Position numbers and translations under genes: made by a program
Notes under the pieces: generated by a model
Database searches by the model: none
Seen by the model: only the letters and a program-made list of their open reading frames with translations
Told to the model about the DNA's origin: nothing
In this document: piece by piece, positions 862 through 64,000 of the stretch
Layout of the letters: each line of letters opens with the position of its first letter
Numbering within the stretch: position 1 is the stretch's first letter
Assembly (NCBI GenBank): GCA_965219415.1
Contig: CBDCNP010000002.1
Location: 3,008,001 to 3,072,000, forward strand
DNA length: 64,000 nucleotides
From: Candidatus Marinacidobacterales bacterium
GTDB taxonomy: Bacteria; Acidobacteriota; Vicinamibacteria; Marinacidobacterales; DATDRI01
Direction of reading: 5' to 3'

Positions 862-1500
862 TTTTGGAATTCTACCATAGGTTTCGCTCTTGATAAAATT
901 GACGATATAGGCCACTCTTGGCCTGCTCCCCACGCGCGAAACAGGCGTAGAACTTGGCCTTATTGACGCCTGCGACGTCTGCGACCTACCCCCGGCATCC
1001 TTAGCCAGAACGCACTCCAGGATGGTTTTTTGGCGCTCGGGGGTCACTTTGTGTCCATTATTCTCTGTGAACTCCCTGTTTTTCACGGTTGCCAGCCGAG
1101 ACCGGATAGCTCCAAACTGCACTATCCGCCACCCAGTCTGTCCAATTGTGGCACTGCAGAGACGGGTGAGATTTTCCGCGCCGTTGGCGCGGTTTTGCAG
1201 GATCAGGTGTCACCAGAGACGCGCTAGAAGGGCTGAACTGGCCTCATTTTCGGTTTTCGTCTCTAATCTCGATTTTCGAGTGCCACGTTCGCGCCAAAGG
1301 GGGGAGCGGGCCGCTGACAGGGCCGTGCAGCGTCGGAAAAGAGGCTACCCGAGGGGTCCAGAATCGAGGCCAGGGCTACCTTGGCGTAGCCGACTAGCAT
1401 GTTCTGGTCCAGGTGCGCCTAGGCCTCCTTGATGCCCTTATCTTGTCTCGAATTGGGCCTCAGCCAGGGGTCCGCCAAGGCTTGAGCAAAGCTTCCTCCC
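1..1500. repeat. Direct repeat of about 1.5 kb with 35176-36660 (offset 35,175 bp)
   Basis: Colinear by eye, with high identity over the gene and divergence towards the 1360-1500 end. The 1360-1500 part has a third diverged copy at about 10425-10560. Confidence 0.9.
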
Positions 1501-1729
1501 GCAAAGCCAAGCTTTGAGGACCCTGTTCTCCTCAAGCAAATAGACGATAGCGGCCTGTTGGTCACGCTGGACCCGACCAGCGATGACGACCACCAACCAT
1601 GTCAAAGGCTGGATCGGCGTCCTCATAACCGAGGATTTCAGCTTCCATTGGCCAACCAAGCCTATGAACTCTAATCCGAAGCGTCCCGGCGCGCGGGTCT
1701 TAAGTTCGTTTGTGTTTTTGGACACGACG
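1490..1729 (-). mobile_element. Family-F IS left end plus N-terminal rve transposase remnant
   Basis: Terminus CGTCGTGTCCAAAAACACAAACGAAC (rc, ends 1729). Remnant ...IAGRVQRDQQAAIVYLLEENRVLK is homologous to the N-terminus of the 13337-14452 transposase. Confidence 0.75.
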
Positions 1730-1736
1730 GGAGGCT

Positions 1737-2505
1737 TCAGACTGACGGAAGATCCGACAACGATATCTTCTGGAGATCGCCATCAGGGGCGTGAGCCTTC
1801 TCCGCCGCCCGGCGAATAATCGCCTTGATGGCCTCTTCTAGAAATCGGCGGTTCTGATATGTCAGATCATTGTCCTTGCCGCTCGCCTTTCTCGCTTGCT
1901 GGCCGCCTCTCTCCGAGGAAAGGTGGCCGATCTTGTTGAGCACCTCCAACTCTATCCGATACACTTCAGATGCCAACTCCCTACACCTTTTCTTCTTCGT
2001 TGAACGTTCAAGTATGGTCAGACAGAAATAGGCCGTGCTCGCCAAAGGTTCTCTGCCCTGGAGATAACCCATGTAGCGATCATACATGGTCTGCACATCG
2101 GGGATGAGCTTGAGTCCCGATGATGGTGGCGAAGGATAAGGTTTTAAAACGGTAGCCATCACGCTTACCTTCGGTACCCCACTCGTGATGCTCACGGATG
2201 TATCCATCACACCCGGTGTCGGCTTCCGGGTCCTCAATGTGCGCCCTTTTAAACTTTAACTTGAAATGGTTCGGCCCTTCCCGAAGGCTAGCGTCGAACT
2301 CCCAAACGCGGATGTAGTCTTCAATGGCTTCCCGTGCAGCGTCTTTCGTCTCGTAGTGTTCCTTGAATTCAAAGCACACTTGCTCATTCGCGATCTCGAC
2401 ACGAAAACCTGTCTCTTCGTGATCGATTGGCTTCGCCTCACCATAATCAACCCACCGACCATGCTCGATTTGGTAAAGCAATGCGACTACATGAGGGTCG
2501 TTCAT
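1737..2505 (-). pseudogene. Hypothetical protein split by a frameshift (ORFs 2080-2505 and 1737-2237)
   Basis: Two overlapping same-strand ORFs with a plausible join near 2220-2240, bounded tightly by the F end (1729) and the G motif (2522). Confidence 0.55.
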
Positions 2506-2521
2506 TGAACTACCCCGGGAA

Positions 2522-2570
2522 TGCGTGCCGAGGTCCGTGGAAAAAAACGGCGCTCCTCCACTTCGTCATC
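2522..2570 (+). repeat. Family-G end motif (TGYGT...CGTGGAAAAAGAACGG)
   Basis: Recurs at 23307 and 32503, and degenerately at about 33245. Confidence 0.6.
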
Positions 2571-2647
2571 ACGTGGCTCTCGAGTTCCCTTCGTTCGGTT
2601 ATCATGTCTCTATCTTCGAACCATCAGCGGGATCGCTACGCCACAAA

Positions 2648-4348
2648 CTATTGATCCGCAACCGGCGACAGCACCTCGTGTAGGAGGGTGTCAAGCAGGC
2701 GGCAGCGGGTGTTGTCACCGGTGGCGATGTTCGCCTCTAAGCGGTCGCAAAGCGCCATCAGTTCATCGACCTTGGCGACGATGCGGTGTTGTTCGGCGAG
2801 GGGTGCGAGCGGGATCAAGAGACGCCGGAGACCAGAAAGCGGAACGGTCTTTTGTGCGATGCCTGTCGCACAAGCGATTGCTTGCTCGAATACCAGACGG
2901 CTTTCCATCGCACGAGCCAAGAACAACACATCAATGAGTTTGGACGGCCGCAATATTCCAATGTGGCGCTGAACGCAGAAAGGTTGATCGTCACGGACAA
3001 CGATGGGTATCCCATACGACCCAACCAGGGTGTAAAGAAGGTCACCACTTCTTGGGCGGCGAATCGGGTCAAGGGCTTCGTAGTATTCCGGCGACACGAA
3101 TCGTGACCCTGCGAACTCAATCGTTTGGCTACGGACGTTACCGATTACCAGGAAAGGGATTCCACTCTCGGTCTTCGGCGGTGGAAGATGGTCTCCATCG
3201 GTAATCGACGCACACACGGATTGGAGATCGATAATCACCCATCCCTGTGGCACATCCCATCCTGTAATTGAACTGGTCAGGTTGGTCGTCGGTTTGGTCT
3301 TCTTTCTCCCCCCCACCTTCTCTGCAGTAATCCGCTTCAACAGTTCCGACGCCGGTTCGTCCGCTCGATCCTGCTCCACCAGCATGCCGCGCACGGCGAG
3401 GTTGAGGATGGTCTGGCGCAGGCCCTTGATCTGGTCGAGGCGGGTGGTGAGCGGAGCGAAGTTTTCGAGCGCGAAGGCGGCATGGCCCTGAAACACCGAC
3501 GGGTTGGGATCGGGCGCGTTGAGTCGGGCGAGGCTCGCCGCTGCAAGCCGGTCGCGCGTCGCCTCCCGCTCGGCGCGCGCCACCTCCAGCCGGTCGCAGA
3601 GTGCCATTAGTTCGTCGACCTTGGCCACGATGCGGTGCTGCTCGGTGAGGGGCGGGAGCGGGAAAGATGAGTTAGCGAAATACTCAGTAGGCACACGCTT
3701 CTGGCCTGCTGTGCCGGTCATCTTGGGGATGCCAGCTTCAATGAAATGAGAGCATTTCAGAAAAATCAGAATGTAATCAGGATCGACGAAAAGCGGGCGA
3801 ACAATATGCAATTCGGTGGTGCCGCTTCCGAGCCCACCAGTCAAGTTCCGAAAAACTGCCGATTTCCCGTTCTCGAAACACGGTGTGATCTTTGCCAGGC
3901 CGACATCACCTTCGGCGAAGTGGGTATACCCTTTCTTGATCTCACCCCATTGCCGAACTTCATGCTCAATTGGCAAACCGTATCCAGACGCAATCAACGG
4001 CATCGGAACAAATGAAGATTGAACGTCATCGTCTACATTGTTTCGAGGACTTAACACGCCGATTTCTGCGATTTGGCTCCACCGCCAATTGACAGGCAAT
4101 GGGCATGGCATGTCTTGTCCAAGAAGAGTTGGAATTATCTTTTGTTTCTTGATCTTCCCCGTCTTCACCAACCGCGCCTTCTCCGACGCGATCCGTTTCA
4201 ACAGTTTCGACGCCGGTTCGTCGTTCAGGTCCTGCTCCACCAGCTTGCCGCGCACCGCCAAATCGAGAATGAAGCGGCGAAAGCGCACAATCGCATCCGG
4301 AGCGTCGGCGATCCGTTCGTAATGGGCCAGCAATCGATCGGCGTTCAT
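2648..4348 (-). CDS. hsdS: Type I restriction-modification specificity subunit
   Basis: Two TRDs, repeated P(P)LxEQHRIVAKVDELMALCDRLE conserved regions, LAVRGKLVEQD motifs. Overlaps hsdM by 4 bp. Confidence 0.95.
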   Translation of the reverse strand: MNADRLLAHYERIADAPDAIVRFRRFILDLAVRGKLVEQDLNDEPASKLLKRIASEKARLVKTGKIKKQKIIPTLLGQDMPCPLPVNWRWSQIAEIGVLSPRNNVDDDVQSSFVPMPLIASGYGLPIEHEVRQWGEIKKGYTHFAEGDVGLAKITPCFENGKSAVFRNLTGGLGSGTTELHIVRPLFVDPDYILIFLKCSHFIEAGIPKMTGTAGQKRVPTEYFANSSFPLPPLTEQHRIVAKVDELMALCDRLEVARAEREATRDRLAAASLARLNAPDPNPSVFQGHAAFALENFAPLTTRLDQIKGLRQTILNLAVRGMLVEQDRADEPASELLKRITAEKVGGRKKTKPTTNLTSSITGWDVPQGWVIIDLQSVCASITDGDHLPPPKTESGIPFLVIGNVRSQTIEFAGSRFVSPEYYEALDPIRRPRSGDLLYTLVGSYGIPIVVRDDQPFCVQRHIGILRPSKLIDVLFLARAMESRLVFEQAIACATGIAQKTVPLSGLRRLLIPLAPLAEQHRIVAKVDELMALCDRLEANIATGDNTRCRLLDTLLHEVLSPVADQ

Positions 4349-5802
4349 CGCATGAGCGCCGCGGCCAGGATCGCCTTCAAGCGGTCGCGCAAGGCCGCCG
4401 TTTCAGCCTCGGCAGCAGTCAGTTCCTTCAGCAGTTCCTCCGGCTCGCCGTGGTCGTCGCCTTGCACGTGCGGGTTCTTGATGTCGAGGTTGTAGCCACG
4501 CGCTTTGACCCCATCGGCCGTCACCTTCCAGGCACGCTCCGTCTCCTTCCGGCCCTCACGGTCCCTCCCACCCCACCAATCGATGCAACCTTGCAAATGC
4601 TCCAGCCGGATCGGCCGGGTCATGGAGTAGGCCTTCTGGCCCTCTGGCACGAGATGTTCGTAAAACCAGATGTCCCCGGTTGGCTCGCCCTTTTCGAAGA
4701 ACAGCAGGTTAGTGCCGATGGAGGCATAGGGCCGAAACACAGAATTGGGCAGGCGGACGATGGTGTGGAGGTTGCACTCCTCCATCAGATGTTCCTTGAG
4801 GCGTGTCTTGACGCCCTCGCCAAATAGCGAGCCGTCGGGCAGCACCACGGCGGCGCGACCAGTCGGCTTCAACAAGCGAATGATGAGAGCGAGGAACAGG
4901 TCTGCTGTCTCCCGCGTGCGGAAATGTTGCGGGAAGTTCGACTCGATGCCGTCCTCCTCCTTGCCGCCAAAGGGTGGATTGGTAAGCACGATGTCCACCC
5001 GGTCCTTCCGCTCCCAGCTGATATAGGGACGGGCCAGGGTGTTGTCGTGGCGGACGAAGCTCGGGTCCTCGATGCCATGCAGTAGCATGTTGGTGACACA
5101 GAGCATGTGCGGAAGCTGCTTTTTCTCCACTGCGCGCAACGCCGCCTGCATGTTCTGCTCATCCTCAGGTCGCTTGACGTAGCGCTCGCGCATGTGACGC
5201 AGCGAACAGGTGAGGAATCCTCCGGTGCCACAGGCGGGATCGAGCAAGCTCTCGCCAAGCTTCGGGTCAATACGGTCGACCATGAAGGCGGTGACGGCGC
5301 GGGGCGTATAGTATTCGCCGGCGTTGCCCGCCGATTGCAGGTCGTTGAGAATCTGCTCGTAGATGTCTCCGAAATGCTGGCGTTCGGTCAGGTTGTTGAA
5401 ATCGACCCCGTTGATCTTGTTGACCACCTGGCGCATCAACTGACCGGATTTCATGTAGTTGTGGGCGTCCTCGAACACGGCGCGGACGACGCGGCGTCGG
5501 TCGCCGAGATGCCCGGTCATCCGGAGGTTCTTAAAGGCCGGGAACAGGTCGTCGTTGATGAAGGCAAGCAGTTCTTCACCGGTGATGCCCTCGGGGTCCG
5601 CCGCCCAAGCGCGCCATTGGTAGCGCTTGGGGATCGGCGAGGCGTAGCCGGGCCGCATCAATCCTAGTTCCTGGTCTTGATCACCGATGATCTTGAGGAA
5701 GAACATCCAGCACAACTGGCTGATGCGCTGGGCGTCGCCATCAACGCCGGTGTCCTGGCGCATGATGTTCTGGATGGATTTGACAAGGGTACGGACGGAC
5801 AT
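4345..5802 (-). CDS. hsdM: Type I RM N6-adenine methyltransferase (EcoAI/type IB-like)
   Basis: GEYYTPR, LDPACGTGGF and NPPF motifs; N-terminus IQNIMRQDTGVDGDAQRISQL. Confidence 0.95.
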   Translation of the reverse strand: MSVRTLVKSIQNIMRQDTGVDGDAQRISQLCWMFFLKIIGDQDQELGLMRPGYASPIPKRYQWRAWAADPEGITGEELLAFINDDLFPAFKNLRMTGHLGDRRRVVRAVFEDAHNYMKSGQLMRQVVNKINGVDFNNLTERQHFGDIYEQILNDLQSAGNAGEYYTPRAVTAFMVDRIDPKLGESLLDPACGTGGFLTCSLRHMRERYVKRPEDEQNMQAALRAVEKKQLPHMLCVTNMLLHGIEDPSFVRHDNTLARPYISWERKDRVDIVLTNPPFGGKEEDGIESNFPQHFRTRETADLFLALIIRLLKPTGRAAVVLPDGSLFGEGVKTRLKEHLMEECNLHTIVRLPNSVFRPYASIGTNLLFFEKGEPTGDIWFYEHLVPEGQKAYSMTRPIRLEHLQGCIDWWGGRDREGRKETERAWKVTADGVKARGYNLDIKNPHVQGDDHGEPEELLKELTAAEAETAALRDRLKAILAAALMR

Positions 5803-5805
5803 GGG

Positions 5806-7048
5806 CTAAGCAGTCTCCCGATAAAGGGCCGATTGAAGCTCGTGGACGGCCTCGATGAAACCCGCTCTCCCGCCGAAGACCTCGACCAACTGCACCGGCG
5901 TGCCGAGTTGGGTGAAAGGTGGGATGCGCAGCACGGTGACATCGTCGAGGTTGAACACACCCTCGTCGGCGTACTTGGCGAGCAACGCGTCGAGCACAGC
6001 GCGGGCCTGGTCTCCGTACTTGTTGAACACGTTCCGCTTCTTGACGCTGTCGGCCCGCTCGCGCCGGGTCAGCGGCTTAGCGTCGAAGGCGACATGGCAG
6101 ATGAGGTCGAAGGGGTCGAGGTCCTTGCCCAATTCCAAGGCGATGAGGTCGAGCGGCAAACCCCCGGCCTCCAACTCCTCGACGATCGCCTGCTTGCGTT
6201 CGGCGGCTTCCCAGCGCTTCAAGAAGTCGTCGAGGCCGACGAAGTGCTTCCTCAGCGCCTTTTTGGTGAAGTCGCGCAGGGATTCGGTGACGAGCTTGCC
6301 GTTCTCATCGAGATATTCCACCCTTTCGGCGACGATGGTCGCGGCGACGCCGTCCACATAGACCTTGCGCACTCCACTGGTATTCGGCACGGTGATGTCG
6401 GGCGGTTTGTCAACGCCGGTTTCGTCATCGCCCGGTTCCGGCGGTATGGGGTCATCGCCGGCGACGGTGGGCGAAGTATCTTCGGGCGGCAGGATGGGGT
6501 CGCCGTCACCCGGTTCGTATATCTGCACCGGTTCGCCGTCGAAATCCGGGTCCGCGAAATAGGTGGTTGCGCCCCGAAAATCCATCAAGGTGAAGTAGAA
6601 CTTGCGGGTGTCCTCATGTACGCGCGTCCCCCGCCCGATGATCTGCTTGAACTCGGTCATGGAGCCGACCTCGCGTTCGAGCACGATGAGCCGGCAAGTC
6701 TGCACATCGACACCGGTCGATAGCAGCCGTGATGTCGTGACCAACACGGGGTATCTGGATTCCGGGTCGATGAAGTTGCTGAGTTGCTTCTGCCCCTCAA
6801 GGTCGGCGCCGGTGATGCGCATGACGTAGCGGTGGTTCTTTTCCACCAGGTCGGCGTTTTCGTTGATGAGTGCCTGGCGCACGCGAGCAGCATGTTCCTG
6901 GTCGACACAGAAAACGATCGCTTTCTGAAAACGGTCTCCACTTTCCTTCAAGAACGCCGTGACCTTTCGGGCCACGAGCTTGGTCCGCTCATCCAGGACC
7001 AGCGTGCGGTCGAAGTCCTTGATGTTGTAGATGCGGTCCTCGACCTCC
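5806..7048 (-). pseudogene. hsdR: Type I restriction subunit, C-terminal part only (5' part removed at an IS-C terminus)
   Basis: LLSTGVD and FKQIIGRGTR helicase motifs plus EcoEI-R-like C-terminus. The frame abuts TGTGCATCGTC at 7049. Confidence 0.9.
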
Positions 7049-7350
7049 TGTGCATCGTCAAAACTGCTCCGCCCACGAAATCAAGGACTTACGCTCCGCT
7101 TGAATTCCGGGCCGAAGACGGCGAAACTCCGCCGCTATGCTCGACGTTGTTGTCTTCCTCGTCTCACTTTGGCGTCCGTGCCATTCGGGCGATGTGTCGG
7201 CACCGCGCCGACCTGGTGTTGGAGAATGTCGCTTTGCGGCAGCAAGTGACGGCGCTGAAGAAAGAGCGCCCACGCCCACCGCTCGACGACACGGAACGGG
7301 CTTTCTGGGTTGCCCTTCGAGGTTCGTGGCCCGTGTGGGCGAGCCGCCTG
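7049..7350 (+). mobile_element. IS-C left end with truncated transposase start
   Basis: Matches 54960-55260; terminus TGTGCATCGTCAAAACT. Confidence 0.9.
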
Positions 7351-7611: not shown

Positions 7612-9891
7612 TCAACTTTCAGAAGGCACCTCATCGGAAGGAACGACGGGTTCCACCGACTTTTCCTTCACGGGTAACGGCCTAGGTGAATTTTCCTGAC
7701 GGAATGTATTCAAGAAGTTCATGCGGTCGTTTAGTCGAATGAGAACAGGATTGTGGCAAGTCGATGATTTACCGAACACAACGGCATGCCGCGCCTCCAA
7801 GCTGGACAAAACAGAGGCGTAGTCCCCGCCGATATAGTTCGACAGAAAAGATTTTCCCGTGTCGTCGAAGATTCGCATTGCGAAGATTGTGTTGCACTGG
7901 TTCAGAATCGTCTTTGTGACGTTCGCGGTCCGCTGGGTAACCAAGAGACACCCTAAGCCGTATTTCCGCCCCTGAAGAATTGCGCGCGCAGTTGCTGCCG
8001 TGGCTGCTTTATCGCCCTCCGCCGCGATTGAGTGCCACTCCGGGACCAGGGAGTGCGCCTCTTCGTATACGAGGCAAATTCGGGCCGTATCAGTCATGCC
8101 CATCTCCTGGGCGATCTCAAGGGCGCACTCCGAAATAATGGCCGTTATCTCACACGGTGTCAGAGATGCCATCGCAGCAGACCCCTGATATTGCCCTCCG
8201 GTCTGCTGCCAGACATCGTATTGGGTGGGGCTACACACGCGAAGGTACCTGCCGCTGTTAGGGTCCAGAAACTCACGCAGTTGCTCAGCCACCTTTGCCT
8301 TGAACTCCTTCTTGGTGCCGCCCTCCTCTTTGTCTTGATGTGATGCTCCTCGGCCACCAGTTGCGTTCAATTCGCTAAATTTCTGTTTCTCATAGTCCGA
8401 GTCGAGAAAGTCAGGCAGTTGCTCAGCGTATTGATTGGTAAGATCGAGGCAGATGACTTTGATGCTGGCTGCAATCATCCGCTCGACAAGTTCTATGGCC
8501 AGGAAGCTCTTACCGATTCCGAGGACGCCCAAGATCGCCGTGTTGTGGGTTACTGCTTCCGATATGTCGATTCCGACCGTGTAGGCCGTGCCGGGTAAAT
8601 GTCCGACAGCTTCCACTGTCGTCGCTGTTTCTTCGGTCCCCTTAAGCAGAACAGGTGCGTTTATGCGAGGCAGCCACCTGGCAGCTTCGAACTTCGTCGC
8701 ATCAGGGTTCCAACGGCCGATCTTTCGTGCTCTGGCTCTGGCATACCCGTACTTGTTTTTCTGTTGGACGATCTCCTCACGCGTGATTCCTTCAATCACC
8801 TGAAATAGTACTGGCTCACCAGCTATCTCAGCTTCGACCAAGCACCCCTCCGCTAGATCACGATCCTCGATAACCTCGAACTGCAGAGATTCGAGCGTGG
8901 TTCCTTCGTCCACAATTCCACAAAACTGTCCCATGCGTTTCAAGATCGAGGCGGAATCACTATCCGGAATATCGTGAGCGTCACGTTCTGAAATCTCAAG
9001 ACCGACGGCAACTCCGACGCCAACCGCAGCGAGTGATTCATCGATTCTCGGCTGAAGGTTCGCTGGCACCGGAAATGTGAGCGACCGAAGCAGATTGCCT
9101 TCGTCGCGACCCACATAGTTGAGGGCAACGGCCAGTGTCTGCGAACCATGGTCGTCCAAGATAAGGAGAGGCGTGCCGCTTTCTACGCTGCCAGCATCAG
9201 GTTGTCGAATTAGCACTATGCCGGGGGACTGATGCGCAGCGATCACGCCGACGATACCGCTCGACCACTTTCTTGCCACCAGACCGTGTACGATACGCAA
9301 AAGCCGCAGTGCCCCCTCGACCGGGCCAAGCGCCACAATCACTGTCCACGTCCCGAGGATAGCGAAGACTTCCATCGGTCGCTCAATGTGGAACAGCCAA
9401 ACAGCGGCGAGGATCACGGTCGTGTAAATCACCGTCGGGCTGCCGAGTGTGCGCACTATCTTGTCGAGCCCAATCAACCACGGCCGCGCCCTTAGTCCAG
9501 CGGGGGCCCGAACTAACAGGACAAAGATGGATGTGAGCAGCACGACAGCACCGAACAGACCTACGATTACGACAACTGCAACGTCAGCCGAGGCTGGAGT
9601 GATTGCCAATGACGCGGCTAGCATCGCAAGGATAACGAAAAAGCCATTGGTGGCCGCGCCGGATGGCGGAGTGAAGTGCGGATTCAGCAATCGGCTACCG
9701 AAGAGCAGGCTCGCGGTTCCGTTGTAGAACCATAGAACTTTCGCAGACGGAAGAAAGCTTGGTTGGACCACAAAATAATGAACTACCATCAAGGTGATCG
9801 CGTAGAGAACCAACGCGATCACTCGGTGTCGGGCTGTGGCTTCAACCATAATTGTTACCAAATAGGTGACGACGACGGACCAACGTACCAC
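7612..9891 (-). CDS. HerA/DUF87-family P-loop ATPase with N-terminal multi-pass membrane region
   Basis: Walker A GVLGIGKS, Walker B LVYEEAH, GRKYGLG and VTQR motifs, HAS-barrel-like region, about 6 hydrophobic N-terminal segments. The start may be 9849. Confidence 0.85.
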   Translation of the reverse strand: MVRWSVVVTYLVTIMVEATARHRVIALVLYAITLMVVHYFVVQPSFLPSAKVLWFYNGTASLLFGSRLLNPHFTPPSGAATNGFFVILAMLAASLAITPASADVAVVVIVGLFGAVVLLTSIFVLLVRAPAGLRARPWLIGLDKIVRTLGSPTVIYTTVILAAVWLFHIERPMEVFAILGTWTVIVALGPVEGALRLLRIVHGLVARKWSSGIVGVIAAHQSPGIVLIRQPDAGSVESGTPLLILDDHGSQTLAVALNYVGRDEGNLLRSLTFPVPANLQPRIDESLAAVGVGVAVGLEISERDAHDIPDSDSASILKRMGQFCGIVDEGTTLESLQFEVIEDRDLAEGCLVEAEIAGEPVLFQVIEGITREEIVQQKNKYGYARARARKIGRWNPDATKFEAARWLPRINAPVLLKGTEETATTVEAVGHLPGTAYTVGIDISEAVTHNTAILGVLGIGKSFLAIELVERMIAASIKVICLDLTNQYAEQLPDFLDSDYEKQKFSELNATGGRGASHQDKEEGGTKKEFKAKVAEQLREFLDPNSGRYLRVCSPTQYDVWQQTGGQYQGSAAMASLTPCEITAIISECALEIAQEMGMTDTARICLVYEEAHSLVPEWHSIAAEGDKAATAATARAILQGRKYGLGCLLVTQRTANVTKTILNQCNTIFAMRIFDDTGKSFLSNYIGGDYASVLSSLEARHAVVFGKSSTCHNPVLIRLNDRMNFLNTFRQENSPRPLPVKEKSVEPVVPSDEVPSES

Positions 9892-9906
9892 GGCGAACAG
9901 CAGCTG

Positions 9907-10151
9907 GGTGCTTCCGCCATCAAGTGTTGCTACGCCGTGTTTGAATGCTAGTGTCAGCTGGCCTGCCTGTGTCGGCGAACGCCACTAATAAGGATGTTGG
10001 CGTGCACACGAAGGCGTCTCTGAACGTCAGGCACCGTGTGGTCAGCCCAGCCCGCATCGCCGAAAGAACTGCGTCTCTCGAAATCGGGCCCCAAACTCTA
10101 GCACACGAGCGGGTTACGCGGCAGCCACCAACACTTGATGGCGGAAACACC
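9907..10151. mobile_element. MITE B1 (245 bp, TIR GGTGCTTCCGCCATCAAGTGTTG)
   Basis: Inverted ends GGTGCTTCCGCCATCAAGTGTTG / CAACACTTGATGGCGGAAACACC. Second copy at 41796-43486 is interrupted by IS110. Confidence 0.85.
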
Positions 10152-10243
10152 CTGAGAAGGAAAGGCTTGAGCGAGAGCTCGGCCCGCGCCGCCCACCTAG
10201 AGTGGCCGTCGCTACCGACGAATGATCTGCTGCTTCAGGAGCG

Positions 10244-10421
10244 CGTCCTGTGCCAAAACTCGGCCCTTTTGAAATAGCCCATAAATCAGCAACTTAGTGT
10301 CTGTGTTTGCGGCCGTGCCAAGGGCCGAGCGCGAACAAACGACGAGATCATGCAGGCATGGTCCCGGGAGACCGGAGACCGATCAAGTTCGGGGCGCGCG
10401 GATGAATAAATAGAAGGCACA
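10244..10421. mobile_element. Hybrid MITE A-H
   Basis: Starts with the IS-A terminus CGTCCTGTGCCAAAACTCGG and ends GGATGAATAAATAGAAGGCACA. Copy at 15000-15176. Confidence 0.85.
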
Positions 10422-10704
10422 ACCGATCCAGAATCGAGGCGCGGGGCTGACCGCGACGTAGCGGGCCAGCATGTTCTGGTCCAGGTAGACTTGGGCCTCC
10501 TTGATGTCCTGACTTGTCTCGGATTCGCCCTCAATCAGGGTCCGGCAACGCTTGAGAGCAATCCTATTCCTCGTCGCTCCTCGGCTCGTTCTTGATGGCC
10601 TTGAGCCAGGCATAGTCTATTCAGCTCGATGATGATCTGTGCGCTACAAGCGCCGCCCGGCGTTTCCGGTCCTTGTGCTAATTCAGGCGCGTGACATCCG
10701 GTGG

Positions 10705-14536: not shown

Positions 14537-14582
14537 GGGTAAGGGGAGTAGCTGTTACCGGCGGCTTTCGCCAAGTGCCGGT

Positions 14583-14999: not shown

Positions 15000-15176
15000 C
15001 GTCCTGTGCCAAAACTCAGCCCTTTTGAAATAGCCCATAAATCAGCAACTTAGAGTCTGGTTTGCGGCCGTGCCCAGGGCCGAGCACGAACAAACGACGA
15101 AATCATGCAGGCATAGTCCCGGCAGATCGGAGACCGATCAGGTTCGGGGCGCGCGGATGAATAAATAGAAGGCACA
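15000..15176. mobile_element. Hybrid MITE A-H, copy 2
   Basis: Colinear with 10244-10421. Confidence 0.85.
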
Positions 15177-50452: not shown

Positions 50453-50457
50453 TTCGG

Positions 50458-56245: not shown

Positions 56246-56247
56246 GC

Positions 56248-56508
56248 CTAAGGGAGTGGATCGATCCGACCGGGAGCCTCGAAACTTCGGGCTCGCTTCC
56301 AAGCTCTCATGAGCTCATCCTGATGTTGAGAGGCCCACTCCACAACGAGACCGGTCGCGCGAGCGGGAAGGCGGCCTGCCGTCAGCGATAGCGTCTCGAT
56401 GGCAAAGAGAGCCTCGTCGGACCCGTAATACGCATGGAAATGAGGAGGGGCATGATCGTTGAAGAACATCCGCACGACGATGCCATAAAACCGGCTTAGC
56501 TCAGGCAT
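56248..56508 (-). CDS. DUF4160-family protein (putative TA toxin)
   Basis: MPELSRFYGIVVRMFFNDHAPPHFHAYY...WA..HQDEL...IDPL. Confidence 0.88.
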   Translation of the reverse strand: MPELSRFYGIVVRMFFNDHAPPHFHAYYGSDEALFAIETLSLTAGRLPARATGLVVEWASQHQDELMRAWKRARSFEAPGRIDPLP

Positions 56509-56785
56509 CTACATCGGCGACCGATATTCGAGGGAAAACCTCCTCCGGCTTCTTTCCGGTTAGCTCGAGGTAGATGCTGTCCGGGCATAGCTCGATGTCT
56601 TTGTTCCACGCGATGCTTCCGTGGGGGCTCACGTGGACGGTCTCGAAGAATGCAGGATCACTCCACGACGAGAATATGCCCTTGCCGACGAAGGGAATGA
56701 GGTCCACCTCGCCTTCGGTGCCATCCTCGTAACGCACCCAAATCTGGTATTTGGGCAGCGCTCGAACTTCGCGAACCTTCAACAT
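56501..56785 (-). CDS. DUF2442-family protein (putative antitoxin)
   Basis: YEDGTEGEVDL...F..V......IAW...IELCPDSIY. Confidence 0.85.
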   Translation of the reverse strand: MLKVREVRALPKYQIWVRYEDGTEGEVDLIPFVGKGIFSSWSDPAFFETVHVSPHGSIAWNKDIELCPDSIYLELTGKKPEEVFPRISVADVDA

Positions 56786-56867
56786 GCCCACATTGTAGCA
56801 CCTCCCGGGCATGTCGAGAGCTGAGCGCGGCGGTGCTATTTCCGAGACTGGATCCTCCGAGATCCCC

Positions 56868-57146
56868 CGTGGTGTCCAATAACACAAACGAACTCAAGAC
56901 TCTTGCGCCACCTTGGCCCGATCTCAAACATAGACACTAAGCTGCGGATTTATGGTCTCTTTCAAAAGAGCCGAGTTTTGGCACAGGACGGGATCGGCGT
57001 CCTCATGACCGAGGATTCTAGCTCCCATCGCCCAACCAAGCGCATACACGTCTATTCCGAAACATCCCGGCGTGCCGATCTTGAGTTCGTTTGTATTTTT
57101 GGACACGACGGCGTACACGTCATCAACAGCAAACAGCGCAAGCACC
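56868..57146. repeat. Stack of ends: F-A hybrid (56868-56990), F left region (to 57110), B2 right stub
   Basis: Terminal motifs; 56991-57110 is homologous to 1611-1729. Confidence 0.8.
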
Positions 57147-57182: not shown

Positions 57183-59768
57183 TCAGAACGAGACGGTTGT
57201 GGTCATCGACACCGTCCGCGGCGCGCCGAGCCAGGCGGCGTTCTCGGTGATGGCTGAGAGGTAGGCGCTGTCGAGCAAGTTATTCACCACAATCGAGAAC
57301 TCCGTCGATCGGAGCAAATTGCTCAACGCCTCGCCCGAGAAACTGATGTAGGCGTCCACCAGCCAGTAGGCGTCCGCGTACCAGTCCGCGGTCAGGCTGA
57401 CACGCCGCGACGACGTGTACTTGGCGGTAAGTCCCGCGCCGAGCGGCCCGCTACGGTCAAGCGAAACGACCCACAGCCGGGCCGGCACCCCGGTGACGTC
57501 AGTGCCCGCCACGATGCCCTGGTTCGCGTCGACGAGTGAATCGCCGCTCCCGATGTACTCCGAGTCATTGAACGTGAAGGCGGTGTAGAAAGACGTCCGA
57601 TGCGGCATCTGCACTGTCGCCGAAAGCTCGATACCGCTCGTGTCGATACCGCCTGCGTTGAAGTAGGCTCCGCCTCCTGGGATGAGGTAGTTGGGACCGG
57701 CAGGCGTTTGCGGGCCGAGGTAGAAGATCCGGTTCTCGAAATCGATGGTGTACCAGGTGGCGCTCAATGCCACCCGGTCCCCCGAATACTGCAGCCCGAT
57801 ATCGATGTTCGAAGCGGTTTCCGGTTCGAGCAGGTCAAGACTCCGGCCCGGCACCTCAAGCAGCGTGCTGCTGAACGCCTTGAAGTTCTGGGCATAGCCC
57901 GCAAAGAAGTCGAGCCCTTCGACCGGCGTATCATATGTGACGCCACCGGAGAAGAGCAGGTCCGAATCGGAATCGACGGTCAGGTCCGGGTCGACATTGA
58001 ACAAGTCCTCGCGCGACACGCCCACGAGGAACTGCTTGACGCCGCCGCTCAGCGCGAACGGGCCAGCGTAGATCGTCTCCTCGACGTACCACTTGAAGAC
58101 GTTCTGCGGGAAATCCCACTCGTACTGGTGCCAGTAGGCTTGCTCATCCCACTTGAAGCTGAGCGTCGGGTCCAGCATCCGGTGCCAGTCCCGGCCAAGG
58201 TCCCGCCGCGAGTCTTCGTACCAGATGCCGGCGCGCAGCGTGCTGCCGGCGTCGCCGATGGTAGTGAACCACTCCTCGTCGAGCGTCACGCCGACACGGT
58301 CCTTCCCGTAGTGGCTGTGGCGGTACGACTGCACCGCAGTAGCGCCGGGGTGGCACACCGGGTCGACCTCCGGACCTCCCGAGCCGTAGTAGTTGAAGAT
58401 GTAGGACGACGTACATCCGGGCATCGGCCCGACAGCAACTCCGTTCCGGTTCACGAACCGGATCAAGCCGAGCTGCGCACCGCCCCGGACTGGTGTCCCG
58501 CCCATCAACTCCGACTCCGGCCCGCCGTCGTCGGTGACGTCGACGATGTAAGGGGGCAGCCAGTCGCCGCGGCCCCGGTTGCGATGAAAATAGGCGCCCA
58601 AGCTCAGCGAGGTGACGTCGCTGAACGACCAATCCGCCTTCAGGTAGCCGAACGTGTTGTTCCGCCGGGTCTGCCAGCCGGGCCGGTAGAACTGGTTCAG
58701 GTATGGCACACCGGGCCAGTCGCCGACCAGGCGGTCCCACCGCGGGTTGGCCCTGAAGTCGGCATCGCTGTAGATCCGCTGGTAGGTGTCCTCGTGGATG
58801 CTGTCGTACGAGATGTAGCTGGTCAGATCGAGGCGTCCGTGCGACGAAACGAGCTTGGCGGCGACGTGCTCCCGCTCGTTCCGCGCGGAGCCCTGCACCC
58901 AGTCGGTCGCCTCCTGACGGACCGTGGCGAGCCAGGCACGCGTCTCACCACCGAACAACGATCCGGTGTCGACCCGCATCGAGAACCGCCTGCCGTCGTT
59001 CTCGCCGATCGTGGCCGACGCGGTATAGGTCCGCTCCGCCGCCGGATTGTCCGTCAGGTAGTTGAAGGTGCCACCCAGCGCCTCGACCGATCGGGAGGCT
59101 ATGTCGGCCGTCCCCTGAGACACCTCGACACCTCCGAGGTTCATCGGGTCGATGAACCGGTTCGCCTTGGCACCGCTCCAGTAGTCGGAGGTGCCGTTCG
59201 GAAAACCGTCGATGGTTGTGCCGATCTGCGCGTCGTTGATGGTCACCTGAAAGCCGCGCATGGCGACGTTGCTCGACCAGTCGTCGAAGCCGTAGGCGTC
59301 CCCCTCCTGGACGGATACACCGGGGAGGTTGTCCACCACCGACGTCACGCTGGTGATGTTTGACTGCTGCAGCATCATCGGTTCGGCGACGACGTTGCGC
59401 GCGAAGGTCTGGGGCTCCTCGGCGACGACGCTGACCGTTTCCAGCAGCCGCGTGACCTGCAGGCTGACGTTCACCGTCGGCGCGGACGCGGCGGCCAGCT
59501 CGACGGTACGCGCCAACTCCTCGAAGCCTGGCAGTGTGAACGTAATGGTGTACACGCCCGGCGGCAGCGCCTCGAACACGTAACTTCCGTCCCCATCGGT
59601 TACAACCACGTACGGGCCGCCGGCCAGCGCGGGTCCCGCGGCTGCGACGGTCACGCCGGGCAGCACACCGCCGGTTTCGTCGGTGACCGTGCCCGCAATT
59701 CGGCCGTCCTGCGCACTGGCGGCGCACGGGGCTACCACCAAGCATGTCACAATCAGAGCGATCTTCAT
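57183..59768 (-). CDS. TonB-dependent receptor with carboxypeptidase-regulatory-like N-domain
   Basis: Signal peptide, GTVTDETGGVLPGVTV, plug (LPGV...RGF...IDG), C-terminal NLLD...GAPRT...F. Confidence 0.93.
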   Translation of the reverse strand: MKIALIVTCLVVAPCAASAQDGRIAGTVTDETGGVLPGVTVAAAGPALAGGPYVVVTDGDGSYVFEALPPGVYTITFTLPGFEELARTVELAAASAPTVNVSLQVTRLLETVSVVAEEPQTFARNVVAEPMMLQQSNITSVTSVVDNLPGVSVQEGDAYGFDDWSSNVAMRGFQVTINDAQIGTTIDGFPNGTSDYWSGAKANRFIDPMNLGGVEVSQGTADIASRSVEALGGTFNYLTDNPAAERTYTASATIGENDGRRFSMRVDTGSLFGGETRAWLATVRQEATDWVQGSARNEREHVAAKLVSSHGRLDLTSYISYDSIHEDTYQRIYSDADFRANPRWDRLVGDWPGVPYLNQFYRPGWQTRRNNTFGYLKADWSFSDVTSLSLGAYFHRNRGRGDWLPPYIVDVTDDGGPESELMGGTPVRGGAQLGLIRFVNRNGVAVGPMPGCTSSYIFNYYGSGGPEVDPVCHPGATAVQSYRHSHYGKDRVGVTLDEEWFTTIGDAGSTLRAGIWYEDSRRDLGRDWHRMLDPTLSFKWDEQAYWHQYEWDFPQNVFKWYVEETIYAGPFALSGGVKQFLVGVSREDLFNVDPDLTVDSDSDLLFSGGVTYDTPVEGLDFFAGYAQNFKAFSSTLLEVPGRSLDLLEPETASNIDIGLQYSGDRVALSATWYTIDFENRIFYLGPQTPAGPNYLIPGGGAYFNAGGIDTSGIELSATVQMPHRTSFYTAFTFNDSEYIGSGDSLVDANQGIVAGTDVTGVPARLWVVSLDRSGPLGAGLTAKYTSSRRVSLTADWYADAYWLVDAYISFSGEALSNLLRSTEFSIVVNNLLDSAYLSAITENAAWLGAPRTVSMTTTVSF

Positions 59769-59890
59769 TGCCAGCTACCCCCCCTCCACGTTACTCGAGG
59801 CTACGAACACAACACGACGCTCACACGCCGCCACCGAGTCACGGCCGTGAGAGAACGTTTACACTTCTACATCATTTTATGTGACATTTG

Positions 59891-59968
59891 GATGCTTCCG
59901 CCATTAAATGTTGGTGAGATGACGCTAAGACCCTACGGTGCATTAAATTACAGCTAAAATAACGCTCA
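59891..59968 (+). repeat. MITE B2 left half
   Basis: GATGCTTCCGCCATTAAATGTTGGTGAGATGACGCTAAG. Confidence 0.75.
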
Positions 59969-60074
59969 CGAAACGCTTGAGTCGATAGCTCGGAAGCCAT
60001 GCTTCGAGAAGCCGATGGTCGGGAAGTCGAGGACCTGAACAGGCGGGTCCGGGCCGTGCTGAGTCACGCCGTCG

Positions 60075-60263
60075 CCGCTTCACCGTGTTCGGCGCGATCT
60101 TGTGGCCCAGGTTGGCCATAGCTCCTTGGATTCGAGCGTAGCCCCAAGACGGGCTCGACTTGGCCATGCGCACGACCAACTCCTCGATTTCCGACGAGAT
60201 GGGCGGACGCCCCGTTTGACGACGAGGGTACGTCCATTGCCTCGCGATGAGCTCACGGTGCCA
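60075..60263 (-). pseudogene. rve transposase HTH fragment
   Basis: WHRELIAR...GRPP...SPSWGYARIQGAMANLGH. Confidence 0.8.
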
Positions 60264-62885
60264 CACGAAGGACTTGACGGCGATCGGGCGGTTCGGGATC
60301 GGCTTCAAGTCGGTCTATGCCTTCACGGACCGGCCCGAGGTCCACTCCGGCACGGAAGCCTTCGCCATCGAGAGCTTTGTCTGGCCGGTCGCCACATCGG
60401 AGGTCGCGCGTGACCCAGAGGAGACTGTCATCGCCATCCCCCTCAAGGCTACTGACGAATCCGGGCATGACGAGATTGCTCTCGGACTCGGCAGCCTCGG
60501 TGCCTCGGCGCTGCTGTTCCTGCGCCAGATCGAGGAAATTCGCTGGAGCGTTGAGGGCGGTCGGTCGAGGCGCTACCTCCGGGAATCAAAGGAAATCGAG
60601 GCCGGCGTTCGGCGCGTGACCGTAATTGACCAGGAACAAGATCAACCGGACTCTAGTAAAGAGTGGCTGGTCATCTCGCAAGCCGTGACCGCGGAGGATG
60701 GCGAGCCAGCGGGGCATGTCGAGCTCTCGTTCTCACTGGCTAGAGACAAGAGCTCCCAGCGAGAGCGCATCCAACGCGTCGAACGTTCCCCGCTCGTGGT
60801 ATTTTTCTCGACAGTACTGGAGACGCACCTCGGCTTCCTTGTTCAGGGCCCCTACCGGACGACCCCAAGCCGCGACAACGTGCCGCACAGCGACACTTGG
60901 AATCAGAGCCTCGTAGGGCAGACCGCTTCGCTCCTCGGGGAAGCCCTCTGCTGGCTGCGGGATAACGATCTCCTCGACACGGCGGGGCTCCGGTGCCTGC
61001 CGCTTGATCCGGTGAAGTTCGGAGAATCCAGCATGTTCGCGCCGCTCTACGATGCTACGAAGTCGGCGCTCTCGTCAGAGTGTCTGCTGCCGCGTTTCGA
61101 CGCCGGACATGTGACAGCCACTTGCGCACGGCTCGGACGCACGCAGGAACTGCGCGAGCTGTTCACGCCGACACAGCTCGCAGCGCTCTACGGAGAGGAG
61201 AACCAGCTCGTCTGGCTGAGCGAAGACATCACGCAGGATCGGACGCCTGAGCTTCGCCGCTACCTGATGCAGGAGCTGGACGTCCCGGAATTCACGCCGG
61301 AGACCGTCATCCCGCGTCTCGATCAAGGATTTCTTGAGGCACAATCCGACGACTGGATCGGGAAGCTCTACAAGTTCCTCAACGGGCAGCCCCGATTACG
61401 GCGACAGTTCCAAGTTCTGCCACTAATCAGGCTTGATGACGGTAGGCACGTCTCGCCGCGCTCGGACGGCCAGCCCCAGGCGTTTCTGCCGGGTCCGATC
61501 GAGACGGGCTTCCCGGTTGTGCGCGCCGCAGTGTGCGTCGGCGAGACGTCGTTCGAGTTCTTGCGGTCACTGGGGCTGATGGAGCCCGACCCAGTGGATG
61601 ACATCGTCCGGAACGTTCTCCCGAAGTACCAGCAGGACGAGGTCGATGTGAGCGATGCAGATTATGAAGCGGATATTCGTCGGATACTTAACGCGTTTGG
61701 CACGGATTCGAAGAAGCGACGAGAGAAGCTGGTGGCTGCACTGCGCGGGACGGCGTTCGTGAAGGCTATTCACGCGGGCGATGGATACAAAGCGGTCAAG
61801 AAACCGGGCGAGCTCTATCTAGCAACGGAACGCCTCAAGAAGCTGTTTGCCAGCGTTGATGGTGTGTTTCTCGTCAACGACGCCTACGCATGCCTGCGGG
61901 GCGAAGACATCCGCGAGCTACTCGAAGTATGCGGTGCCACGCGGTCTCTGCAACCGGTTCCCGTCGAGTGCCACCTGTCATGGAGGGAACGGACCGAGAT
62001 CCGGCGGACTCAGGGCCTTGAGCGATCGACGTGGGAGCGGCGAACCGACGACAAGACACTTCGTGGGCTGGATGCGCTGTTGAGTCTGCTGCCGAGCGTC
62101 GGACCGGCTGAACGGCGACAAAGGTCGGCTCTGCTTTGGAAGGCCCTCGCAGATGTCGAGAGCCGTCAAGGCTCTCGAACGTTCGAAGTCGAGTATACAT
62201 GGAGCTATTCGCACGAGATGAAAACGGCCACGTTCGACGCCGCCTTCGTTAAACAGCTTCAGGAAAGAGCATGGGTCCACGATGCAGACGGTAACCTGCT
62301 CGCCCCGGAGCTGGTCGTTTTCGACACGCTCGGTTGGAAGCCGAACCCGTTCCTCCTCTCCAAGATTCGCTTCAAGCCGCCGATCGTCGACCAACTCGCC
62401 AAGGAGGCGGGGATCGAGCCGGGGGTGTTGGACCTTCTCAAGAAGCATGGCATCACCAGCGAAGCTGACCTGCGCGAGCGACTCGGGGTGAAGGAGGAAC
62501 CCACATCCGACAACGTGGTCAATCCAGTTGCCATTGATGACGCGTTGAAGAGCCTGCTCGGCGACACACCGTCGCCGACACCCCCCGTTCCAGATCCCGC
62601 CGGAGTGGACCCTATGCCTCCAAGCGGCGGCGAGGGTAGCGGTAGCTGCACGTCGAGAAGCGCGGGCGGACGGCGGTTCATTTCATACGTTGCAACGCAT
62701 CCCGATGGCGAGGACTCTGACCCCGATGGCTTCGATCAAGCCGCGCATATGGCGCTTGAGGCGAAGGCCATCAAGTTCATCCTGTCAAAGCCAGGGTGGC
62801 AGCGAGCACCGACGCACAACCCGGGCTTCGATCTCTACGAGAAAGGACCGGATGAGCAGCCGACGCGGTGGTGTGAAATCAAAGC
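60264..62885 (+). pseudogene. Sacsin/NOV-like HATPase protein with C-terminal DUF3883-like nuclease, clipped at both ends
   Basis: IGRFGIGFKSVY GHKL motif at the start; NPGFDL...EIK cut by MITE B2 at 62886. Confidence 0.8.
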
Positions 62886-63051
62886 GGTGCTTGCGCTGTT
62901 TGCTGTTGGTGATGTGTACGTATCCCTTTGCAAAAAAAGCGCTTACGCTCCATTTAGCGCACGGCGAAGGTCGTGAGCGCTATTTTGGCTGTAATTTAAT
63001 GCAGCGTAAAGTCTTAGCGTCATCTCACCAACACTTAATAGCGGAAGCACC
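62886..63051. mobile_element. MITE B2 copy (inverted)
   Basis: 166 bp. Confidence 0.88.
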
Positions 63052-63174
63052 GCTTTATGCTCGAAGCGTGAGGTTTGGGGCCGTCCCGTCGGCTTGCTGC
63101 AACTGCCCGACGGATCGCTTCTCGTGAGCGACGACGGTGGCGGGAAGATCTGGAGGATTACCTACCGCGGTTAG
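63052..63174 (+). pseudogene. C-terminal fragment of a PQQ-dependent sugar/sorbosone dehydrogenase
   Basis: Manual translation WGRPVGLLQLPDGSLLVSDDGGGKIWRITYRG*. Confidence 0.75.
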
Positions 63175-63225
63175 GGCTTGAGCGCCGCGGGTTCCTGCAG
63201 GGCGACGGCTAGCTCTCGCAAGGGT

Positions 63226-63383
63226 TGTGATCCGCAAAAAAGGAAGATCGGCCAGAAGCAGCCGACCATGGCGAGTCTAAAACGCGCAATCAACGCTGGA
63301 TCGACTTTTTGCGGAGCACACCACTGACATTAGCATTCAAATGCCTCTAGCGGCGTAGCAGCCTTTGATGGCAGAAGCACCAC
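63226..63383. repeat. MITE J (63226-63320) plus degenerate B1 end
   Basis: Terminal motifs. Confidence 0.8.
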
Positions 63384-63395
63384 CTGCTAGCATCC

Positions 63396-64000
63396 TGTCC
63401 ATCATCATTACTTGTCCGGGACTGGACTCTAGGCCCGGACTGCCCTCGAGCTCATGCTGGAGAGCGTGGTCAGCGCGCGAGGGAAGGTTCTGAGGACGAA
63501 CTTCTCGGCGACCAGCCGAGTAGCGCGAGCGACCAAGCTGACTCAGGCTGCCTCTCGCCACTCGTATCGATGGTGCAGTCCACCGACTCGAGGCAGCGCG
63601 ACGACTTTCGCCGTAGGAGACGGTCGGTGCGTGATCGCTCTCAAGCTCGGTGTGTCCTTGTTCAGCCCCAAGTGGCAACGGTCCTCATGATAGTAGCTGA
63701 TGTAAGCTCGCACGAGCCGGATGAGATGACATGCGCCGAGAACCACGACGTGCTCAAGGAGCTCGCGACGGCAGCTGCCGACCCACCGCTCCGCGGTTCC
63801 GTTTTGCCATGGGCTGCGAAACGAAGTGCGAACGGGTTTTGTGCCCGTTGCCTTGATGAACTCGATGACCGCAGCGCTAAAGATGAAGTCGCGATCGAAG
63901 ATGAGATATTTCGGAGCGGTGTCGTAGGGAAACGCCTCACGCAGTTGCTGAATAACCCAAGCAGACGTCGGGTGGAAGGTGGCGTTGAAGTGAACGATGT
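63396..64000 (-). mobile_element. IS-C copy running off the right window edge
   Basis: Right TIR at 63396; transposase 3' part 63543-64000. Confidence 0.9.

Follow-up and report, generated by a model that had tools for sequence, protein, structure and literature searches.

The question raised by this locus is how a long series of unrelated DNA segments comes to be joined, one after another, at the ends of transposable elements. The window analysed here is a stretch of 64,000 nucleotides, C3:3008001-3072000 of the genome G000, a metagenome-assembled genome (MAG) of 8.05 Mb in three contigs with 59% G+C and an estimated contamination of 8.45%. The host is a sponge-associated member of the Acidobacteriota, and the stretch is also present in sponge-metagenome runs. 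Its mobile part consists of insertion sequences (IS) with rve-type DDE transposases, referred to as IS-C, IS-A and IS-D, of miniature inverted-repeat transposable elements (MITEs), of solo ends and of an IS110-family element. A preliminary description had interpreted the ends as joining sites at which rve transposases stitch foreign DNA into a growing, integron-like array. In the current analysis each joint has been found to be an exact element terminus set in an ordinary target without a target-site duplication, and the continuation of that target, sought across the element and elsewhere in the genome, is gone. The reading that we put forward, and judge to have about an even chance of being correct, is that a divergent IS3/IS481-like rve clade, its MITEs and the IS110-family element insert without duplication, that one side of the target is lost, that such events survive only in dispensable defence-island DNA, and that the elements belong to a shared pool.

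Exact copies of the recurring end motifs number 36 in the window (A 12, B 6, D/E 4, F 3, G 2, H 5, I 2 and J 2), and the IS-C end TGTSCATCRTCA occurs ten times, giving 46 exact ends in all and more than 50 when mismatches are allowed; at up to two mismatches D/E has eight occurrences. The two patterns compared with shuffled sequence, D/E and the IS-C end, matched it 0.02-0.03 times on average. The earlier count of more than 50 copies of about ten motifs is therefore borne out. The same can be said of their alternation with some 30 cargo segments, as BLAST of the window against its own genome places blocks that are unique or present in 2-4 copies between high-copy ones, which have 5 to about 450 copies, and merging of adjoining low-copy blocks by eye leaves about 27 cargo blocks.

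IS-C is represented in the window by three full copies, of which two retain an intact transposase frame, and IS-A by two copies, of which one is intact. The other mobile parts are the IS-D transposase open reading frame (ORF), the IS110-family element in a carrier with B ends, four full copies and one partial copy of MITE-B, and many solo ends. Four two-ended copies with intact transposases had been described; the two of IS-C and the one of IS-A stand, and IS-D has a 355-aa ORF with a single D/E-type end beside it (31176-31193, two mismatches), no opposite end having been found beside the ORF in a D/E search at up to two mismatches. The window transposases match the rve_3 profile with E-values of 3e-8 to 5e-6. 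The best NCBIfam matches of the rve ORFs are to IS481 and IS3 (E-values of 1e-23 to 3e-28), at scores below the curated cut-offs (84-99 bits against 224 for IS481 and 59-86 bits against 160 for IS3). The nearest relatives on RefSeq plasmids are annotated merely as 'integrase core domain-containing protein'. Bradyrhizobium plasmid relatives of the transposase share about 45% identity, and occupy only two near-identical places in the record, too few for the scoring of duplications; relatives are also present in Streptomyces and Leptospira. The IS-C termini TGTCCATCATCA ... TGACGATGCACA, which are TG...CA inverted repeats, are found in 48 copies, and the full copies in the window are oriented +,+,-. 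MITE-B is a short, non-coding element of 166 bp bounded by inverted repeats, with 149 full copies in the genome. The transposase of the IS110-family element matches NF033542 at 302.6 bits (cut-off 140) and both the DEDD_Tnp_IS110 and Transposase_20 domains; its B-ended carrier exists in an IS110-free form at 9905-10156, which would fit a specific IS110 target, and the outer flanks of the carrier vary.

Full copies of these elements throughout the genome lack the expected footprint. No flanking direct repeat of 4-60 nt is present round IS-C (0/48), IS-A (0/11) or the IS110/B element (0/10), and MITE-B has matching flanks in one of 149 copies, a single 5-nt match, with none at any other length from 3 to 10. 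At three nucleotides IS-C shows 4/48 matches against 2.8 in shuffles, which is the chance level. Long or displaced duplications are likewise missing, up to 60 nt or within 80-nt flanks, in an anchored repeat search. At no offset are flanking direct repeats in excess in the A, B, D/E, F and H families, and no facing pairs have been found for J and G. The preliminary statement that the elements have no duplication and that their flanks come from different loci, as seen at the IS-C copy at 11300-12584 with its two unique and unrelated flanks, thus extends to the whole genome.

In contrast, four control IS families of the same assembly, 1.37-1.44 kb long and present in 26-41 copies, retain duplications, nearly all of 8 bp, in 18/31, 30/41, 24/32 and 10/26 copies (38-75%). 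These duplications indicate that joints are resolved and that the method works, which argues against an artefact of assembly or of method, and they show that two classes of IS differ in behaviour within one genome. Young copies abroad also come without a clear footprint. Two 100% identical IS-C copies in G022 (L015 and L020) have four different flanks and no duplication, and no unambiguous duplication has been found at 12 near-identical IS-C copies in five other genomes. A young subfamily in G031 comprises 15 copies at 99.3-99.9% identity to the reference copy, of which four have matching flanks of 3 nt, where 1.3 would be expected by a hand estimate from the flank triplet frequencies; one of the four, L055, cuts an hsdR gene that does not resume. 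Open frames spanning the joined G031 flanks (4/15) are no commoner than in random pairings (32%). Ten more distant relatives from other lineages with recognisable TGT...ACA ends have no duplication of at least 3 nt, the flank tallies of the distant relatives, the IS-C copies abroad and the G031 subfamily having been made by eye. A further locus of G031, L049 (1416-4683), has a full young IS-C-like copy lying directly between two partials of the element, one with its first 969 bp (5') and one with its last 955 bp (3'); the partials overlap in element coordinates, and the arrangement is therefore not a simple self-insertion.

What the termini abut has been tallied for 160 IS-C termini: unique DNA in 87, the interior of a repeat in 64, a mixed context in five and another terminus in four. 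Such joints of terminus to target resemble transposase strand transfer and not recombination between attachment sites. Internal breaks of IS-C number 82, and at 49 of them the adjoining sequence is the terminus of another repeat. For 60 of 96 IS-C flanks a paralogue reads through the joint into sequence unlike the opposite flank; an empty site was found for none and a joint common to another copy for two. Many flanks have a 99-100% identical counterpart at a distant locus, where the sequence runs on without a break. A tendency to G is seen outward of both IS-C ends, and GGY in the young G031 subfamily, as judged by eye. The census of all repeat joints in the genome by k-mers gives 2013 terminus-unique, 547 terminus-internal, 513 internal-internal and 1461 internal-unique joints. 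Diverged copies and the points at which subfamilies branch (MITE against parent IS) swell the 'internal' classes, and the IS-C-specific count is used here for that reason. The terminus-to-terminus class of the census consists mostly of gaps of 30-39 nt that resemble CRISPR spacers. About 160 pairs of repeat termini in G000 (positions unlisted) are spaced by 30-39 unique nt, a signature of one or more large CRISPR arrays.

The missing half of a target lies beside the opposite end of another copy in only 1/42 cases for IS-C, 3/222 for IS-A and 5/94 for MITE-B. Scrambling by recombination or inversion between copies was rejected on the rarity of these reciprocal halves and on cross-matches of flank k-mers that stand at chance, in a test powerless for duplications of 3-4 bp. 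Nested insertion was rejected too, for the partial IS-C copies at 90% identity or more are all one-sided and 0/73 pair as split copies within 15 kb. Tandem duplication was rejected as well: had it placed a new IS at each joint, that IS and its donor would have one flank in common, as is seen for just 2/96 flanks. At C3:4321244-4323538 four abutting IS-C pieces (a full copy, positions 57-593, positions 1202-1285 and inverted 1-389) suggest repeated hits of IS-C into IS-C.

The ends are confined to a distinct compartment of the genome. Genome-wide totals reach 473 for A, 277 for B, 221 for H, 143 for F and 139 for D/E, and yet just four such ends lie on contig C1 (2.07 Mb), and the first 2.5 Mb of C3 is for the most part free of them. 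Some 26 bins of 100 kb hold 23-79 ends each, zero being the count in most other bins, and make up about one third of the genome (about 2.6 Mb). Inside these bins lie 47/48 copies of IS-C, 141/148 of MITE-B, 10/10 of IS110/B and 9/11 of IS-A; the bins were set from the same motifs whose families were then counted, and independent of that choice is the contrast with the control families, which are dispersed, with only 35/130 copies inside. Among the exact A ends 333/473 lack a facing partner within 2.5 kb, a figure inflated by mismatched partners, as solo-end counts based on exact motifs overstate solo ends generally. The genome-wide mapping proposed in the preliminary description has shown clustering far beyond the window: these elements are neither evenly dispersed nor accompanied by normal duplications, and their cargo has other surroundings in relatives.

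Within the order, IS-C-like transposases have been identified in 18 of 31 genomes and in two of its three families, with dozens of matches in large genomes and none in the family whose genomes measure 2.7-4.2 Mb. The defence block at 43491-54959 is found at 96-97% identity, whole in G014 and in parts in G001, G026 and G022. Its MZB-domain helicase (50458-54987) is truncated at the N-terminus exactly at the IS-C terminus 54959/54960, and the remainder does not lie beyond the IS-C on its far side, in agreement with the earlier remark that no split gene resumes across an element. In G014, G001 and G026, the three genomes read at this boundary, the helicase continues past 54959. The continuation exists in G000 only as a 92% paralogue at C3:2462692, and the sponge-metagenome run X3 contains the helicase allele in its uninterrupted form, seen as a loose end at position 54959. 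As the helicase runs on in relatives and IS termini lie on both sides in G000, the block is a larger island that has been trimmed and not an end-bearing cassette. The two relatives checked for synteny, G014 and G001, have none of the other low-copy segments of the window within 20 kb on either side of it. Between genera and between families of the order, the repeats and the cargo agree at 96-99% identity. IS-C copies show no grouping by genome of origin (median identity 97.67% from foreign copies to G000 and 97.59% within G000), and 13/48 G000 copies have a foreign nearest relative. As a side observation, G026 has long tandem arrays of an 881-bp unit at C1:7592734-7603675 and 7977436-7980198, in which a 120-bp repeat piece recurs about every 881 bp.

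These findings can be brought together as follows. The rve clade (IS-C, IS-A, IS-D and relatives), the MITEs, the solo ends and the IS110-family element would build an IS-saturated plasticity compartment. Insertion itself would proceed without duplication, with one side of the target lost or replaced, either as the two ends of an element enter different sites or as an element patches a resected break. In core DNA such events would be lethal to the cell, and would consequently accumulate only in dispensable, defence-rich DNA. What results would be a mosaic in which trimmed cargo and solo ends lie among recently duplicated fragments. The elements would belong to a pool, shared at about 98% identity, that travels among related genomes, and the array would be a by-product of element activity and not a dedicated capture machine. 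Such a reading accounts for young copies free of footprints, for the contrast with the control families, for the confinement to dispensable DNA and for a published precedent: Ngan et al. (2024, PMC11708052) report de novo movements of IS481 and IS5 elements that lack duplications and are linked to a large duplication or deletion, and suggest that the elements entered breaks already present or that the transposase drove the rearrangement.

Several observations weigh against this reading. The mechanism has been deduced from end states, since no insertion event has been watched; the joints are known from assemblies alone, the four public runs being unitig sets that break at repeats, and no clean pair of pre- and post-insertion sites with both flanks was recovered among the genomes compared (at the young copy L052 the flanking SIR2-like gene has no homologue in G000, G001, G014, G026 or G031). 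The control families lose duplications with age, 75% being kept at 99.65% pairwise identity and 38% at 98.6%, and IS-C (97.6%) is older than they are, with IS-A (95.5%) and MITE-B (91%) older still, so that in G000 the absence could be partly or wholly secondary; a rough and crude extrapolation of the trend would still leave about 9/48 IS-C copies with a duplication. The identical copies of G022 could stem from gene conversion and not from recent movement, the 4/15 matches in G031 may reflect some simple insertions with a 3-bp duplication, and that subfamily was measured in one genome and the control families in another, G000. Finally, 29/82 internal IS-C breaks have no recognisable terminus beside them, and deletion independent of termini is therefore acting too. 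It is accordingly a possibility, to which we give limited credence, that the elements insert in the ordinary IS3/IS481 manner with a short duplication, and that very frequent recombination within families and transposase-driven adjacent deletion in unselected DNA have since erased every duplication and every second half, which would make the region a decayed IS nest of a symbiont genome. Both processes, recombination between copies and adjacent deletion, are on record as reasons for missing duplications (PMC11708052), the density of about 60-80 ends of six families per 100 kb is extreme, the controls lose somewhat more duplications in dense bins (18/35 kept, against 64/95 elsewhere), and recombination removes the reciprocal product, which fits the missing halves; the 3-nt matches of G031 and the breaks away from termini point the same way. 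Nevertheless, control families comparable in length and in copy number still have half of their duplications within the dense bins, IS-C keeps none in 48 copies, the 99.3-99.9% subfamily keeps at most 4/15 with one of the four not a simple insertion, and both identical G022 copies are without one. Recombination between full copies should moreover yield full copies, yet most ends are solo (A, by the inflated count given above).

The proposal of a gene-capture platform, in which the rve transposases stitch end and cargo, as circles or translocatable units, into an array like that of an integron or of IS26, is improbable in the light of the joints, although it was rightly seen that the ends are joints of a real mosaic. 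It would agree with the absence of duplications and the unmatched flanks, with the unit of A end, Na/Pi transporter and A end that occurs three times at 98.4-98.6% identity (window; C3:3089665-3092986; C3:3491763-3494847), with the many cargo fragments 99-100% identical to distant loci, with the differing neighbours of the cargo block in relatives and with an element pool common to several species. On the other hand, terminus meets terminus in only 4/160 cases, the shared flanks expected of translocatable units and replicative cointegrates amount to 2/96, the cargo is cut inside genes (two hsdR and the helicase) of which longer versions exist in relatives, the IS copies are not direct repeats with one copy common to adjoining segments, and no promoter arrangement is apparent. 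Tyrosine recombinases (PF00589) have 13 matches in the genome, none in the window and none among the 25 large window ORFs scanned; 11 of the 13 lie on C1, the contig with only four of the end motifs. IS6-family transposases (PF13610, DDE_Tnp_IS240; IS26-like) have eight genes in the same compartments, a point in favour of the platform, with none in the window and no IS6 match among the NCBIfam results for its transposases. All eight are on C3 between 3.10 and 5.47 Mb (3101585, the nearest, 3327899, 3432954, 3485429, 3592824, 4761176, 4792025 and 5472569), and could add replicative rearrangements to that part of the contig. The analogy with integrons and IS26 fails on the types of joint, on the shared flanks, and on the absence of both enzymes from the window, and the cargo is worn down by the ends and not brought in as whole cassettes. 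Equally doubtful as the principal cause is exchange between genomes, in which DNA of relatives would enter by homologous recombination at shared IS or MITE copies with illegitimate far joints and with little part for the transposases now. It would explain the lack of clustering of IS-C by genome and the 96-99% identity across genera and families, the hybrid block of G001 (identity 81% in its first 1.3 kb and 97% thereafter), and the joint of IS-C with a 935-bp repeat that is identical in G022 and at C3:4492251-4494491 of G000; it leaves unexplained the exact placement of the visible joints at element termini and the absence of duplications in certain families only, and is best viewed as a process that probably acts alongside duplication-less insertion. 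That a metagenome assembler chained repeats of several strains or species into false joints is very improbable. The contamination estimate of the MAG, the presence of the same repeats at 98-99% identity in related genomes, and public runs made of short unitigs that end at repeats, with no joint-spanning read among them, would allow it. The clean 8-bp duplications of other families in the same assembly speak against it, as do the pattern in six other independent assemblies, the recurrence of at least one joint with its flank in a different genome, and the length of the element, as an IS of 1.3 kb and both flanks fit in one long read. In run X9 the unitig depth relative to unique DNA, about 27-60x for IS-C and about 390x for A ends, is of the order of the assembled copy numbers, in figures that mix organisms, other species in the sample adding to the depth.

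A wider form of the preferred reading may be stated more tentatively. The elements would form an unnamed rve clade between IS3 and IS481 whose normal reaction is duplication-less insertion with replacement of one target side; together with its MITEs it would have built the compartment of about 2.6 Mb, continually trimmed and refilled, whose pieces circulate at about 98% identity among species and families of sponge-associated Acidobacteriota as a communal yard for the exchange of defence genes. A de facto role in interspecies exchange of defence DNA is possible. A literature search on 'Marinacidobacterales' returned no paper, and no search was aimed at described rve IS groups without duplications. 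Target-site duplications are treated as a hallmark of DDE transposition, on which annotation tools and evolutionary models depend. Here whole rve families, with hundreds of copies in several independent genomes, are without them, whereas co-resident IS families keep theirs, and this contrast makes testable the open question of whether some IS movements join unrelated DNA ends, causing deletions or duplications and not simple insertions. A genome of two compartments, a clean core and a mosaic of about one third that holds defence systems and elements common to other species, is also relevant to the exchange and erosion of defence genes within symbiont communities.

The features of the window are collected in the table below. 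The cargo is mostly defence-related according to Pfam and PADLOC, the rest being the Na/Pi transporter, an amidohydrolase and the TonB-dependent receptor, and its ORFs lie on both strands with no common promoter or orientation. The first hsdR fragment is without its N-terminal helicase half and stops at an IS-C fragment, and the block 4147-7047 has a 93.8% copy at C3:4420045-4422948. The second hsdR has its N-terminus cut at a MITE-B, HSDR_N being matched only from profile position 127, and this cargo has a 93.7% copy at C3:4511920. A homologue of the Na/Pi-PhoU gene, 72-77% identical, is encoded in the core contig at C1:532339-535477. In the metagenome runs the unitig depth over the TonB-receptor region 57348-59685 is 10-60x as high as over the adjacent unique defence block; other members of the community probably carry near-identical receptor genes in abundance. 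An ORF family represented at 1-1122 and 34804-36513 (minus strand), with about 14-49 genome copies and 569 aa in the full copy, has internal DNA repeats of 588 bp, each encoding small helix-turn-helix (HTH) domains (HTH_23, HTH_7, HTH_Tnp_1); a catalytic domain was not found in it. At least ten tandem 12-bp units (CAGCCAGAGTTA-like) lie at 29260-29413 inside the ORF 28441-29523, whose N-terminal part matches only the end of a HATPase_c_4 / pAgo-associated domain.

Table. Mobile elements and cargo in the window, in order of position (window coordinates unless a contig is named)
Feature	Coordinates	Strand	Remarks
Type I restriction-modification genes	hsdS 2648-4348; hsdM 4345-5802; hsdR C-terminal fragment 5806-6975	-	Pfam, PADLOC
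Solo IS-C right-end fragment	7049-7350	-	IS-C positions 985-1285
HerA/DUF87-like ATPase	7612-9891	-	unique in genome
254-bp element with B ends	9905-10156	.	repeat families D16, D18, D20; copy numbers 41-101
A-type end or MITE piece	10238-10602	+	partner end absent
IS-C, full copy	11300-12584	+	TGT...ACA termini; 349-aa rve_3 transposase 11447-12496, minus strand; no duplication
IS-A, full copy	13104-14540	+	371-aa transposase (HTH_32 + rve_3) 13337-14452, minus strand; no duplication
Solo A end, Na/Pi cotransporter-PhoU gene and next A end	14996-18292	+	gene 16391-18088
IS-A, second copy	18209-19646	+	broken transposase frame
IS-C, second copy	20125-21410	+	broken transposase frame
RmuC-family gene	21587-23248	-	99.1% copy at C3:4944498
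MITE-B	23625-23790	+	166 bp
MITE-B, further copies	27690-27855; 40199-40365; 62886-63051; partial 59890-59971
IS-D transposase ORF	30001-31068	-	355 aa; HTH_32 + rve_3
Mrr-type restriction endonuclease	31626-32474	-
Two solo IS-C left-end fragments	33894-34134; 34241-34628	+	IS-C positions 1-241; 1-389
YgjP-like gene and hsdR	36829-40167	-	YgjP-like 36829-37557; hsdR in two overlapping frames, 37554-39311 and 38938-40167
IS110-family element within B-ended carrier	41796-43488	+	transposase 41852-42928
Defence block	43491-54959	-	11.5 kb; Pfam, PADLOC
DrmMI-like methylase	43682-47683
DpdE/DrmD-like SNF2 helicase	47687-50533
MZB-domain helicase	50458-54987
IS-C, third full copy	54960-56245	-	intact transposase 55048-56097, plus strand
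634-bp fragment	56246-56879	.	99.2% identical to C3:5599495-5600129, there continuous with unique DNA
Solo A end	56911-56995	-
TonB-dependent receptor	57183-59768	-	99.6% copy at C3:4879925
TmtA-like ORF	60247-62976	+	PADLOC
IS-C left-end fragment	63396-64000	+	IS-C positions 1-718; runs off the window

Comparison with known systems places these elements closest to the IS3 and IS481 families, to which they are linked by one predicted DDE transposase that combines an HTH and an rve_3 core, by an element length of about 1.3-1.45 kb, by TGT...ACA inverted repeats and by the best NCBIfam matches. Members of IS3 and IS481 duplicate 3-15 bp of their target. The present elements differ in scores far under the curated cut-offs, in having no duplication and in the confinement of their copies to compartments, and they carry a single ORF where IS3 has a frameshift pair. 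The IS110-family element is like its family in its predicted DEDD transposase with both Pfam domains. MITE-B resembles other MITEs in its small size, non-coding sequence, inverted repeats and copy number, and is unlike them in lacking flanking duplications. The events described in PMC11708052 are similar in that DDE elements, including a member of the IS481 family, lie at novel joints without duplication; those were rare laboratory events, whereas here whole families, in hundreds of copies and over about a third of a genome, regularly behave in this way. Arrays of IS26 and other IS6 elements share unmatched flanks, single copies without duplication and IS-bounded cargo, and are set apart by the non-IS6 transposases of the window, by the mixed IS-C orientation, by the scarcity of donor-shared flanks and by the many interleaved families. 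Integrons likewise present a dense series of unrelated, partly defence-related segments split by recurring short sequences; in the window no IntI-type tyrosine recombinase is present, the recurring sequences are IS and MITE inverted-repeat termini in arbitrary targets, and the cargo is truncated, with ORFs on both strands. The high IS load, the pseudogenes, the deletions and the clustering of defence genes with mobile elements recall IS expansion and erosion in host-restricted symbionts and defence islands, an enrichment of defence genes in sponge symbionts having been reported (PMC5649159, PMC5099237). The locus is distinguished from such expansion by the sharp division between empty and dense bins and by two classes of IS that behave differently in one genome.

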